Below are positions 3,492-8,822 of a stretch of DNA of 64,000 bases, in pieces; positions within the stretch are counted from its first letter, which is position 1, and every line of letters begins with the position of its first letter. The notes under the pieces were generated by a model. It did no database searches. It was given only the letters and a program-made list of their open reading frames with translations, and had not been told where the DNA came from. The position numbers and the translations under genes were made by a program. Source of the DNA: a virus (taxonomy: Duplodnaviria > Caudoviricetes); IMG/VR virus record IMGVR_UViG_3300048861_000079, positions 1-64,000 of that record. The stretch is one strand, 5' to 3'.

Positions 3492-3493
3492 CC

Positions 3494-3637
3494 ATGGACC
3501 ACGCTACCCTCTTCCTGGTGTGGTTCTTCGGGCTCTTCGTCACCACGATCCTCTCCGTCAAGATCGGCGCCTTCTGGGCCGTCTTCGGATTCATCTTCCT
3601 CCTCATCCATGGACTCTGGGCCGGACGCAGGAAATAA
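3494..3637 (+). CDS. Small membrane protein (47 aa)
   Basis: MDHATLFLVW... two hydrophobic segments, basic C-terminus. Confidence 0.6.
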   Translation: MDHATLFLVWFFGLFVTTILSVKIGAFWAVFGFIFLLIHGLWAGRRK

Positions 3638-3649
3638 ACCATAGGTAGG

Positions 3650-4470
3650 TTGTCACCGGTTGACACTCAACCGCCCAAGCGACAACAAAAGGGAAAGCCG
3701 CGCCAGGCCAGACCACCGGAGTGCCAATCTCCGGACAACCAAATGACAATCCCAAGCACCGCTCACCACCCGGCAAACATACCGCTACGTTGACAGAGCT
3801 TTACCTTTGCTTGTCGCTTTGACCCCGAAATCAGGTTTTTCGGCAAAACGTCAACATGAGCACACGCTAATCCTCAAAGAACAAAACGCTCACAGAAGCG
3901 CACTGAGAGCGACCGTCGATCAAAACGCTGAGAGACACGCAAACAATCAAAGGAACGCGTCACAGCTCAACCTCGAGCGAACCTGGAAGCGCTGCACCCC
4001 TAAGCGAAAAACATATTCGGGCGACAGACAGAGAGAGCGCTATAGACAGGTGCGCACGAAGGGAGAGGGTATGCGTAAGCGAGAGCTGCACACGTAGAGG
4101 GGACCAGAAGCGAGCGCAGCGAGCGGATACTGTAGAGAGACGGGCGAATAGCGGGAGATAGTCAGAGAAAGCGAGACATAGTGAGGAAGGAGGATGGTTG
4201 CCGCGCCGTGGTTATCCATGCCTCTCCATAAAGCCCCAAGACCTCCCGCCCTGACCCATGGAGACGATCGCCCTTCCGACGCCTGTTGCTCTCCACACGA
4301 GCCTATGCGACAAGCAAATCAGATTTTGAGCACTGTCACCTGGAGTGCTCACAAGAGGCGCCGAGCAATCGGCTGCCCTCTCTCTAATGTTGCTGAGCCG
4401 GCAATCAGGTGTTAGCCGGACACCTCCTAAAGGGCGCTTGTGCAGGTGACTGCCGGCGCCCTTCTTTTTG
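3650..4470 (+). ncRNA. Candidate structured non-coding region/RNA
   Basis: About 820 bp without a credible ORF; several hairpins, T-poor plus strand over much of it, terminator-like end at about 4430-4470. Confidence 0.3.
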
Positions 4471-4584: not shown

Positions 4585-4791
4585 AATTATGCCGAAGGGA
4601 AGACCTCCGGCTGCGTTCCCATGGGTTTCCAAGGTTATCCATGGGTCCAGCTGCGGGTGGCGGCTCCCTGCCGTGTATTGCCCTGCCTCTCCATGCGATA
4701 TCCCTGCCGACTTTGTGCGTGCCCTGCAGTATTCTCTAATCATCGAAAGCGCAACGACTTTCGAAGAGCAACACACAACGGAGAGAATACT

Positions 4792-5655
4792 ATGACCCGC
4801 AAGAACAAAGCCGCCGCTGCCCCCGTCGTTTCTACGCCTGACCTCAACACATTCATGGGTGATATTGCCGGTGCCGCGGAAAACCTCGAAATGGAGGCTC
4901 TGCTGAAGGCCGAGGAGGAAGCTGCCCTTGAGAATGCCCGCCAGGCCGCCGAGGCCGAGGCTCAGGCCAACCAACCACCGGCCGACGAAGAGCCCGCACC
5001 AACCCATGACGAGCCGCTGATGGTGAACCATGTGCCGGGTGACATCAAGGTGATGATCGACAACGTCACGCCGGAGGCACGCCAGCAGAAGGCAGAAGAG
5101 ATCCGTTCAGAGCTTGCTGCCCGTGTCGCCCATGACACCGCCGGCGATCGCTCGATGGGTCCGGGTAAGCAGAACAGCCTGAAGAAGGCGGAGAAGGAAC
5201 TGGCGACGATGGGTGCAGCAGGCTTCTTCTGCGCCGTCGATATCGACCCCTCCTTCATTAACCGCAACATCGCAGGTGACGGGCGCTTCAACGTCTACGC
5301 CCTCGACAAGATCCGCGACCTGATCAGTGGCATCGGCGGCGGCTTCGTGCAGAACCCCATCAACCGCGCGGTCATCGCCTCCATGCTGAACTTCCGTGAC
5401 GCCGGTCTGCCGTTCACGATGGCGCACATGCAGGCAGCGATCAGCAGTGGCGTAAAGGTCGAGCGCGCGGTCGCAAAGCACCTGGTCCGGCACACCGTCG
5501 CACCGAGCACGGCACCGACGCAATCCTCGCAGATGTCACACGCCTTGCAGGTGATGGGCATTGCGACGGCGAGCACGATCGGGCGCGTGACCACCTTCAC
5601 GCTCACCGACACGCCACAGACCCGGCGCCTCGAGCAGGTGCTCCGGGCAGCCTGA
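4792..5655 (+). CDS. Hypothetical protein (287 aa), paralog of 7190-7777; possible C-terminal winged helix
   Basis: GGAGAG SD before ATG 4792; shares YA..K..[DE]L...I, N[FL][RK]...FT.A...A.IS and T..[AT]Q......AL motifs with the 7190 protein. Confidence 0.8.
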   Translation: MTRKNKAAAAPVVSTPDLNTFMGDIAGAAENLEMEALLKAEEEAALENARQAAEAEAQANQPPADEEPAPTHDEPLMVNHVPGDIKVMIDNVTPEARQQKAEEIRSELAARVAHDTAGDRSMGPGKQNSLKKAEKELATMGAAGFFCAVDIDPSFINRNIAGDGRFNVYALDKIRDLISGIGGGFVQNPINRAVIASMLNFRDAGLPFTMAHMQAAISSGVKVERAVAKHLVRHTVAPSTAPTQSSQMSHALQVMGIATASTIGRVTTFTLTDTPQTRRLEQVLRAA

Positions 5656-6061: not shown

Positions 6062-6125
6062 CCTGCCGAAAAATCAGTAAATACTGAATAAAGTAATTCA
6101 GTAAGCAACACACAAGGAGAGACAA

Positions 6126-6467
6126 ATGTCTTACGTAACCGAAGTTTTCATGAACAGGCAGATCGCACAGGCTGCAGACGCGCTCGATCTCATCGAGGCA
6201 TGCAAGACGGCGAAGCTCAAGGAAGCGACAGCGGTCAAGCTCAAGCTCGTGGTTGACGAGATGCAGCGGGCAGCGAAGCGCTTCAAGGATCTCGCGGCAG
6301 ATCAGTCGGTTATGAGCGAGGGCGAGTTCTTCGCGAAAGCACTGGCGCGTGCGCAGGTGATCAAGAACGAGCGGGCAATCATTGCACGGATCGCACGCGA
6401 GAAGCGTGAGCGGGAAGCGGCTGAGCGTGAGGCACTGCAGAAGGAGCTCGCCCTCATCGCAGCGTAA
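6126..6467 (+). CDS. Helical/coiled-coil hypothetical protein; gene nearly CC-free
   Basis: AAGGAG SD; no Pro or Trp; downstream terminator. Confidence 0.8.
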   Translation: MSYVTEVFMNRQIAQAADALDLIEACKTAKLKEATAVKLKLVVDEMQRAAKRFKDLAADQSVMSEGEFFAKALARAQVIKNERAIIARIAREKREREAAEREALQKELALIAA

Positions 6468-6477
6468 CGGTTCAGCG

Positions 6478-6503
6478 ATAGGCGTCTCTTCGGAGGCGTC
6501 TAT
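6478..6503 (+). terminator. Terminator hairpin with TTCG loop
   Basis: ATAGGCGTCTC-ttcg-GAGGCGTCTAT then CTTT. Confidence 0.7.
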
Positions 6504-6723
6504 CTTTGCACCGTGGCCGCAGGGGTCGGAAACGGCGCGGGGTTCAGGAACGGCTTAGGATCATGGGATCCCCAGGCGGGCGGAGAGGAAGGGCGCCCGG
6601 CCGGGGACGGGTAGGGTTCCGCCGATTCCTAAAACCTTCGGTATTGGAATCGGCTTAGGTTCCCCTTCCCCTCTTCCGTCCCCTCCCCTCTCCCAGCCGA
6701 AAACCCTGGCCGGGTGATCCAGC

Positions 6724-6763
6724 CAGGGTTTCAGGAATTCAGGATTTATGGATTTCAGGGATT
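6724..6763. repeat. 5 x 8-bp direct repeat (CAGGATTT-like), centromere-like
   Basis: CAGGGTTT CAGGAATT CAGGATTT ATGGATTT CAGGGATT. Confidence 0.7.
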
Positions 6764-6955: not shown

Positions 6956-7149
6956 CAGTATGCCCAGCCCCAGGCCTTCCGGCCAGTGGCAAGGATGAAG
7001 CGCTTGGAGATCCAGAGGAAGCCATGACGGCTAAGCTCCATGCGCGGCGGATAGAACGGATTGGATTTGAACACCATGGGAACGGCTCGCATTTCAGGTG
7101 GAGAGTGGCGAGGAGGGCGCCAGGGACGCCCCGTAGGGCTTTCTGATGT

Positions 7150-7174
7150 AGCGAGCGCTTATGCAGCGCTCGCT
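7150..7174. terminator. Perfect hairpin downstream of the GG/CC-free gene
   Basis: AGCGAGCGCT-tatgc-AGCGCTCGCT; no clear U-tract. Confidence 0.5.
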
Positions 7175-7189
7175 TATGTAAGACGCTGC

Positions 7190-7777
7190 TTATGCAGCGT
7201 CTTCGTTCTCGTCTTCGCTCGTCTCGAAAGCACTCATGTCGATTTCGAGTTTCTTAGCGAGCGCGTAAGCGATCTCGTTTAGCTCGATTTCGTATGTGTC
7301 TTTCAGCGTTGCGTGCTCTTTGAGAATGTTGAGCGTCAACAGAGCGTCGATTGACGTCTGATGCTGCGCGTTCACAGTCTTTTCATCAAGAATAGCGCTG
7401 CGAACGAATATGACGTTCTGCTTTTCGTCAGTCGTCTTGTAGTCGCGTGAGATCGATGCTTTAGCATCTGCTTTCGTAAACAGCATGTTCTCACGCTTCA
7501 GATTGATGACAGTGCGCAGCATCGCAACAGTGTTCTTTTCGAGATTTGCGTCTTTGTGATCAAAGATCGCTGCGACGAGTTCAACAGCTTTGAACGTCGC
7601 ATACATAGCGCGCAGCAAGCGCTCTGCGCTGACGTTGCAGCGTTCGAGCATCGTTTCAACTGCTTGCTGCGAGACAATAGCATCGCAGCGCTTCAAGCGT
7701 TGAACGTTAGAAGAAGTCGAGTTCTTTGCAGCTGCAGCAGCGATGCGCGAAGAAAAAGCAGTGTTATAAGCGTTCAT
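7190..7777 (-). CDS. Hypothetical protein (195 aa) with no Gly/Pro/Trp, encoded by GG/CC-free DNA; paralog of 4792-5655
   Basis: Intact ORF; GAGAGA SD-like sequence; aligns by eye with the 4792 protein. Confidence 0.85.
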   Translation of the reverse strand: MNAYNTAFSSRIAAAAAKNSTSSNVQRLKRCDAIVSQQAVETMLERCNVSAERLLRAMYATFKAVELVAAIFDHKDANLEKNTVAMLRTVINLKRENMLFTKADAKASISRDYKTTDEKQNVIFVRSAILDEKTVNAQHQTSIDALLTLNILKEHATLKDTYEIELNEIAYALAKKLEIDMSAFETSEDENEDAA

Positions 7778-8046
7778 GTTCTTATCTCTCTATTTGAGCG
7801 TTGCTTGCTCGTTTCGTTAATCAGTGCGATTTGTTGTTCGTCATCTGATAAATATAGTTATAAGCGATGTCTTAGACGGATTCTATAGCGCTGATGGGGA
7901 TGCCTTCTGTGTCGACCGAGCTCCGGTGAGCCAAACCTCCCATGTCACTTTCCCGGATCTCAGATGCGCGATAGTCGCCTCCCCTATCCCGGCCAGCGCT
8001 ATCCCGAACCCCAATCCTCCCACGCCGATCTGCCCGATCAGTAAGT

Positions 8047-8078
8047 CCTGAAATCCATATTTCCGTAATTCAGGATCT
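8047..8078. repeat. 4 x 8-bp centromere-like repeats
   Basis: CCTGAAAT CCATATTT CCGTAATT CAGGATCT. Confidence 0.55.
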
Positions 8079-8125: not shown

Positions 8126-8202
8126 CGCGGGATAGCTCAGCCAGGTAGAGCGGTGGCCTCATAAGCCACAGGTCATGGGATCGAAGCCCATTCCCGCAAC
8201 CA
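8126..8202 (+). tRNA. tRNA with CAT anticodon, initiator (fMet)-like but atypical
   Basis: Cloverleaf CGCGGGA/TCCCGCA, C1:A72 mismatch, loop CTCATAA, encoded CCA; T-loop ATCGAAG. Confidence 0.9.
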
Positions 8203-8206
8203 ACAT

Positions 8207-8282
8207 TGGTTCGTAGCTCAGTTGGGAGAGCGGGTGACTGTTAATCACCGGGTCGCAGGTTCGAGCCCTGCCGAACCAGCCA
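8207..8282 (+). tRNA. tRNA-Asn(GTT)
   Basis: Canonical cloverleaf TGGTTCG/CGAACCA, loop CTGTTAA, TTCGAGC T-loop, CCA. Confidence 0.95.
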
Positions 8283-8297: not shown

Positions 8298-8822
8298 ATG
8301 ATCCCTCCCTACCGTAATGCCGTCTGCCGGGGCTCTCTTGCCCTTGGAACCGCTTGCCGCCGCTGCGAGCGCTGTGATGCCGAACGCGAGCAGATGCGCG
8401 CGCAGCAGGTCTCTGCCGAGAAGTCCGATGCTCATCAGCCGACGATCAACGTCGTCGTCAATGCAACGGAGTTGAAGGCTGCGCCTGATATCGCCCAAAA
8501 GGTCAAGGACGCGCTGGCGGGCTCGATGCGCTTCCACAGTGGCGGTGTCGCTGGTCTGCCTGTCAAGGGCTACAAGAAGGAGCAGCCCGCGCACCTGGTC
8601 GCCCTGGTGAACGAGAACAAGCTTCTCGAGGAACTCGTGCTGCGTCAGATCACCTGCCACGTCAGGACCGACGGCATTGACCAGCGCTTCGTCGCCCTCG
8701 CCCGCACCAAGATCCAGGAAGCCTTCATGGACCTCAACCGGGCCGTCTTCCAGCCGCAGCGCATCGAGGACATGGACGGCACCACGGCGCTGATCGTCAA
8801 GCTTTTGGACCGGAGCAACTGA
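8298..8822 (+). CDS. Acb2/Tad1-like nucleotide sponge domain with Cys-rich N-terminal extension
   Basis: GLPVKGY...VALVNENK..EE...QRFVALARTKIQEAFMDLNRAVFQP resembles the Acb2 pattern; CRRCERC N-terminus. Confidence 0.6.
   Translation: MIPPYRNAVCRGSLALGTACRRCERCDAEREQMRAQQVSAEKSDAHQPTINVVVNATELKAAPDIAQKVKDALAGSMRFHSGGVAGLPVKGYKKEQPAHLVALVNENKLLEELVLRQITCHVRTDGIDQRFVALARTKIQEAFMDLNRAVFQPQRIEDMDGTTALIVKLLDRSN

Follow-up and report, generated by a model that had tools for sequence, protein, structure and literature searches.

A small self-contained gene of a rhizobial phage-plasmid is written almost without the dinucleotide CC on its coding strand only, and its relatives either keep this ban or, in a sister lineage, carry the mirror-image ban on GG, so that something unidentified appears to read one nucleic-acid strand of this gene unit. 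The window analysed here is the first 64,000 nucleotides of an 86,931-bp single-contig virus record (IMGVR_UViG_3300048861_000079), which has no terminal overlap. It carries terminase, portal and major head genes, an Acb2/Tad1-type anti-defence gene (8298-8822) followed by an HslV-like peptidase gene, tRNA-Met and tRNA-Asn (8126-8282; the only Rfam matches), ParA, two ParB-N proteins and a soluble ABC ATPase. Although no DNA similarity was found in phage and plasmid collections, protein-level relatives are the Rhizobium phages RHph_X66, B1VFA, V1VFA-S and RHEph10, together with the plasmids pLM21S1 (Sinorhizobium), pRlX6 and a Pararhizobium plasmid, that is, the RepC-bearing phage-plasmid group (PMC5537653; PMC12509600). 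Related loci are labelled L001 to L028 below; a scan of metagenomes for further loci returned none, while a scan of genome contigs gave one.

A strand-specific depletion of CC

The depletion, which had been pointed out in an initial annotation made from the sequence alone, is real. In 6068-6510 CC occurs only at 6139, 6451 and 6452, against 29 GG. The 312-bp CC-free run (6139-6451) is the second longest in the whole genome after the 772-bp island of the neighbouring gene, the next longest being 134 bp, and about 3e-7 such runs are expected by chance. In 300-bp sliding windows these two units are the only CC/GG outliers in 87 kb, GG and CC each being present at about 6-8 per 100 nt on both strands everywhere else. 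The stretch holds a single ORF (6126-6467, plus strand) encoding a 113-aa protein, hereafter g113, whose N-terminus MSYVTEVFMNRQI and C-terminal Ala-Ala are conserved in 27 homologues.

Amino-acid composition, which had been named beforehand as the explanation that would undo the observation, does not account for it, even though the protein is helical and Ala-rich with little need for Pro or Gly. When the protein is kept and codons are drawn from 19 reference genes, 19.0±3.9 CC are expected (minimum 7 in 3000 draws) against 3 observed, whereas GG is normal (24 against 20.5±3.2). GCC is 1 of 25 Ala codons, against 484 of 1243 (39%) in the reference genes, and the protein has no Pro. Permuting synonymous codons within the gene still gives more CC than observed (5.4±1.0, p 0.02), so codon junctions are also controlled. 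Pooled over six genomes of this lineage, 36% of codons end in C, but only 2% (3/173) do so when the next codon starts with C (p 3e-23), while ordinary genes show 49% against 32%. Other by-product explanations fare no better and are very unlikely. C-to-T mutation pressure is rejected as unlikely since GCC is replaced mainly by GCG and GCA rather than GCT, T is the rarest base in the gene, and CG and GC, not TC or CT, are the strongly enriched steps in the neighbouring island. Selection for unstructured mRNA is likewise rejected, because predicted folding energies equal those of recoded controls (z 0.6 for g113 and -0.3 for the neighbouring gene). The residual GG or CC showed no common context that would point to a longer banned word.

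The CC-poor zone (6064-6509, 446 bp) runs from the probable promoter to the inferred terminator of g113. It begins directly after the stop codon of the upstream small gene (...TAACCTGCCGA) and covers a 62-nt leader and probable promoter/operator (6064-6125), which holds four tandem 8-bp repeats (6073-6104) and the motif AGCAACACACAAGGAGAGA. It ends at a strong predicted hairpin (6477-6504; -24.4 kcal/mol, z -6.4) with a 12-bp stem and a UUCG loop, in which two G·U wobbles, harmless in RNA, sit exactly where Watson-Crick partners would create CC; the orthologous hairpin in L002 is fully Watson-Crick and holds one CC. Promoter, terminator and hence transcript ends are inferred from sequence, and since g113 follows the upstream gene after about 65 nt, co-transcription with CC-rich genes is not excluded. 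In relatives, the zone is 432-489 bp with no CC.

The protein itself is predicted to be all-helical (three helices, pLDDT 90.6), with a basic REKRERE segment, but has no informative Pfam, PHROG or PDB match and only generic helical fold hits. Its gene shares the leader AGCAAC(A/G)C ... (G)GAGAGA ... ATG with those starting at 4792 and, on the minus strand, at 7777 (window 4767-4794, 6104-6128 and 7805-7775, respectively), which suggests related, co-regulated cassettes, although only two of the three carry a dinucleotide ban and protein homology between the 7777 and 4792 genes is not supported (BLASTP E 0.44). Operator-like repeats occur further along: TTCAGGA repeats at 6729-6760 have an inverted copy at 8047-8071 (within repeats at 8037-8076), so that the two bracket a small 66-aa gene and the neighbouring island. 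The shared leader and operator-like repeats of g113 suggest co-regulation with the neighbouring gene at 7190-7777.

One part of the initial annotation does not hold. The tract at 4011-4200, said to show the same bias, does contain a single CC, but it is a polypurine tract on the plus strand (72% A+G, C 16%, T 12%; AG 34, GA 31) in which all dipyrimidines are rare (TC 2, CT 3, TT 2) and for which composition alone predicts about 5 CC. It lies in the non-coding region upstream of the 4792 gene, and relatives show low-GG or low-CC stretches at roughly the corresponding place.

Mirror-image bans in related genomes

The neighbouring convergent unit (7131-7903, minus strand) is free of both GG and CC, against 35 and 20 expected within its 588-nt gene alone (g195, 7190-7777), and also includes the leader and terminators of that gene. 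The 195-aa protein has no Gly, Pro or Trp and is predicted to fold as an N-terminal helical part plus a winged helix (pLDDT 90), with only generic winged-helix matches (Z 7-8). The island is kept in nearly every related locus examined, down to 28% identity, and spans 760-1360 bp where it was measured, the longest being in pLM21S1 (L007, 5805-7189). Its 5' edge coincides in all lineages, including those with a 230-nt leader, with a conserved non-coding block unique in the genome (7865-7907, minus strand; GAAGGCATCCCCATCA, then TCTAAGAC(A/T)TCG), which could be a special promoter or conceivably a terminal-repeat boundary, while the sequence 20-40 nt further upstream is conserved and rich in GG/CC. 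On the other side, a terminator-like hairpin on the plus strand (7127-7146; GCCCCGTAGGGC followed by TTTCT) abuts the island and would stop antisense transcription from entering it. Both g113 and g195 end in Ala-Ala across most of their families (6465-6467 and 7190-7195 in the window), possibly a protease tag.

The convergent arrangement of the two genes is syntenic in all loci long enough to show it. In the lineage of the window, coding-strand CC in g113 is 0-4 with GG 11-24 (window, 3; L001-L004, 0; L019, 2; L022, 4; L028, 0), and the codon null, run on four of them, gives z -4.1 to -6.2. In L002, L003 and L019 one CC sits in the 3' arm of the terminator, and thus inside the RNA. In the sister lineage (RHph_X66, pLM21S1 and others) the same gene in the same orientation shows the opposite: CC is normal (21-40), but GG is 2 in pLM21S1 (L007), L012, L013 and L021, and 8-11 in RHph_X66, B1VFA and pRlX6, with z -3.9 to -4.9 for L007, L012 and L013 and -2.3 to -2.9 for the X66 group. 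In the GG-free clade G-ending codons fall from 47% to 2% (4/177) before G-starting codons (p 3.5e-29), against 38% to 27% in ordinary genes, and the ribosome-binding region also loses GG (GAAAGAG-type). The sister lineage has four nnnAGCTA repeats where the window has its 8-bp repeats. L009 and L020 are partly depleted of both dinucleotides, whereas the more distant L023, L024 and L026 show no ban on this gene and L025 (14 CC, 13 GG) no clear one. On the protein tree, g113 of L001 groups with the GG-depleted clade (support 81/88, long branch), yet it sits in a window-type backbone and is CC-free, which suggests that polarity follows genome context rather than gene descent.

In g195, coding-strand GG is 0-2 in all but one homologue counted, and both dinucleotides are kept out in 16 of 18 homologues tabulated; where the ban relaxes, it is coding-strand CC that returns (L011, 10; L014, 28, with three Pro codons). 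Only in L026 (1656-2204) have both partly returned (7 CC, 14 GG), although the protein still lacks Gly, Pro and Trp, so that it looks like a decaying ban. Elsewhere, L021 has a second small GG/CC-free gene (3492-3758; 88 aa with no Gly, Pro or Trp) and L025 a GG/CC-poor stretch over a 99-aa gene (about 2250-2600). In L008, a Chelativorans composti contig, three copies of a canonical parS-like palindrome (GTTTCACGTGAAAC) lie inside the GG/CC-free leader of the g195 homologue, which hints at a link between this gene unit and partition. In the GenBank record of RHEph10 (L006, JX483881; 5884-6564), the CDS over the g195 homologue (gp148) is annotated on the opposite strand to the conserved reading frame.

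Candidate readers of a single strand

The initial annotation proposed that the relevant rule may be the absence of GG on the transcribed template strand, obeyed by both genes, and that this fits a polymerase-blocking lesion on G within GG better than double-strand restriction-site avoidance. This interpretation is only partly supported. The depletion is strand-specific and kept in homologues, the rule holds for both genes in this genome and for g113 in eight genomes of this lineage, the zone is bounded by the inferred transcription unit, and a conserved ParB-N/ParB-N/ABC ATPase/GNAT-like operon next to the terminase genes is a candidate DNA-modifying system. However, the rule is not the family invariant, since the sister lineage tolerates template GG in g113 and, in L011 and L014, in g195, and is instead depleted of sense GG. 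A different modification chemistry is an unlikely cause of the flip, because the GNAT-like protein is 80-83% identical in both lineages (L014, L011, L012, L010 and X66), which also leaves a link between relaxed bans and loss of this gene unsupported. Moreover, the conserved element directly upstream of the island is full of GG/CC, and the replication and structural genes, which would also have to be transcribed, are full of GG on both strands. A lesion or phage-made modification on template GG is therefore an unlikely, although second-ranked, explanation.

We favour, tentatively (probability of about 0.4), selection at the nucleotide level against a still unidentified reader of the mRNA itself, possibly an RNA-cleaving or RNA-modifying activity with dinucleotide specificity, host- or phage-encoded and differing between lineages. 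In this view, g113, a real and conserved unit in the small-gene, anti-defence arm of a Rhizobiaceae phage-plasmid of the pLM21S1/RHEph10/RHph_X66 group, carries the one-strand counterpart of the ban on its neighbour, and two short-lived-looking proteins could still be made while that activity is present. As the ban is confined to the transcription unit, is strand-specific and exists in two mirror-image forms in different lineages, the factor being evaded most likely reads a single strand inside the transcribed unit, the mRNA being the simplest candidate. What the analysis establishes is the nucleotide-level selection, the boundaries of the unit, the strand specificity, the conservation and the polarity flip; that the reader sees one strand inside the transcribed unit, that it acts on RNA rather than on one DNA strand in the transcription bubble, and that it belongs to defence or host takeover, are inferences. 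The rule is coherent in transcript terms, since in the X66-type lineage both convergent genes are GG-poor on their sense strands, and in this lineage both lack CC there (the three residual CC of g113 aside), whereas a rule fixed to one DNA strand would predict the opposite for convergent genes. Yet no nuclease or modifier with GG or CC specificity was identified in the phage or its hosts, Pfam and PHROG scans of neighbouring genes giving Acb2/Tad1, an HslV-like peptidase, ParA, ParB-N and an ABC ATPase, and no host genome being part of the comparison. The model also needs two specificities, CC here and GG in the sister lineage, and, like the template model and the one that follows, it does not explain why g195 avoids both dinucleotides while g113 avoids one. 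The terminator CC of L002, L003 and L019, the possible co-transcription of g113 with CC-rich genes and the lack of a ban on this gene in distant family members also count against it.

A third and more doubtful possibility is an enzyme attacking the exposed non-template DNA strand of transcribed units, that is, an ssDNA base modifier in the style of DarT ADP-ribosyltransferases, or an ssDNA deaminase, with GG or CC context, the ban keeping the displaced strand free of targets. This would be strand-specific and bounded by the transcription unit, as observed, and DarT enzymes modify bases in ssDNA at short motifs and act against phages (PMC11543638). However, E. coli DarT1 showed no consensus motif (PMC11543638), no such gene was found here, two specificities are again required, and the base composition described above carries no deamination footprint.

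The boldest reading, possible but unlikely on present evidence, is that rhizobial phage-host systems contain two distinct single-strand readers, one for GG and one for CC, acting on mRNA or on the transcription bubble, and that a class of small early or anti-defence genes is written in a reduced dinucleotide alphabet so that it stays expressible. In that case, g113, which obeys only one ban and switches ban between lineages, is the natural handle for separating and identifying the two readers. Motif avoidance is normally read as the footprint of double-strand DNA readers such as restriction enzymes and CRISPR. A ban that is confined to one transcription unit, holds on one strand and flips polarity between sister lineages while gene orientation stays the same largely rules out those readers and points to an unknown activity with dinucleotide specificity acting on RNA or on one DNA strand during transcription. 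If found, this activity would explain fully GG/CC-free cassettes and would give a simple sequence rule for spotting genes that a phage must express under attack.

Comparison with other forms of motif avoidance

Searches of the literature found no paper describing a dinucleotide ban of this kind or a GG/CC-free gene class; what is added here is the strand-specific, polarity-switching form, which narrows the class of possible readers. The closest known phenomena each share one feature with it and fail others. As in classical restriction-site avoidance, a short DNA word is removed by synonymous codon choice and kept out over evolutionary time, and this genome also shows the classical form: GTAC is 0 against 128 expected, TGGCCA 0 against 14 and CCCGGG 0 against 9, and GTAC is also 0 in all 26 related loci checked (L001-L026; about 250 kb, roughly 300 expected), a family-wide ban typical of restriction avoidance or of a phage-borne GTAC-specific nuclease. 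In g113, by contrast, the word is a dinucleotide rather than a palindrome, avoided in one small unit instead of genome-wide and on one strand only, which supports the argument of the initial annotation against double-strand restriction-site avoidance. Depletion of CRISPR PAMs (CC for type I-F, NGG for Cas9-type systems), which is reported in Pseudomonas phages (PMC12174588), is very unlikely for similar reasons, as a DNA-targeting system can use protospacers on either strand, so that a one-strand ban leaves half of them, the rest of the genome is unprotected and the ban is confined to one or two small units.

A parallel in logic is the orientation bias of EcoP15I sites in phage T7, which escapes a type III enzyme needing inversely oriented sites by having all copies of an asymmetric word on one strand, either orientation serving equally well. 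If a double-strand reader needed GG and CC on the same strand, as palindromic sites or two inverted half-sites do, removing either would suffice, abolishing every palindrome that holds GG/CC and predicting mirror-image solutions. This is nevertheless very unlikely, because cleavage anywhere in the genome is lethal and such avoidance should be genome-wide, as GTAC is. The T7 bias is genome-wide and concerns a 6-bp site, whereas here the flanks are very rich in both dinucleotides and the rest of the genome carries GG on both strands, so that paired-site cleavage would not be prevented. CCGG is over-represented and GGCC only mildly low, and the double ban on g195 would be unnecessary.

Transcripts that lack the cleavage word of an mRNA endoribonuclease (ACA-less mRNAs and MazF, or T4 RegB, which cuts GGAG in early mRNAs) offer the mechanism that we think most likely: a word is absent from the sense strand of a whole transcript, so that one message survives a sequence-specific RNase. 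In g113, CC is missing from leader, coding sequence and hairpin alike, except at 6139 and 6451-6453, with transcript ends inferred. No RNase with CC or GG specificity has, to our knowledge, been described or was found here, and the banned word is shorter than any interferase site known to us. Pre-early (first-step-transfer) genes in the terminal repeat of phage T5 are also small self-contained early-type cassettes with unusual sequence hygiene, and the relative B1VFA has fixed ends with a 3,605-bp direct terminal repeat (PMC12509600), given without its position and not marked as a repeat feature in the records inspected, but the T5 region avoids particular restriction sites, not a dinucleotide on one strand. 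Finally, the fully GG/CC-free neighbouring unit belongs to the same locus family and shares with g113 the dinucleotide pair, the leader and the unit-bound anatomy, that is, a self-contained unit with its own leader and inferred terminator whose ban is conserved in diverged relatives. However, g113, with 24 GG and one Gly, lacks only CC and Pro, and thus bans only one member of the pair, which one depending on the lineage.
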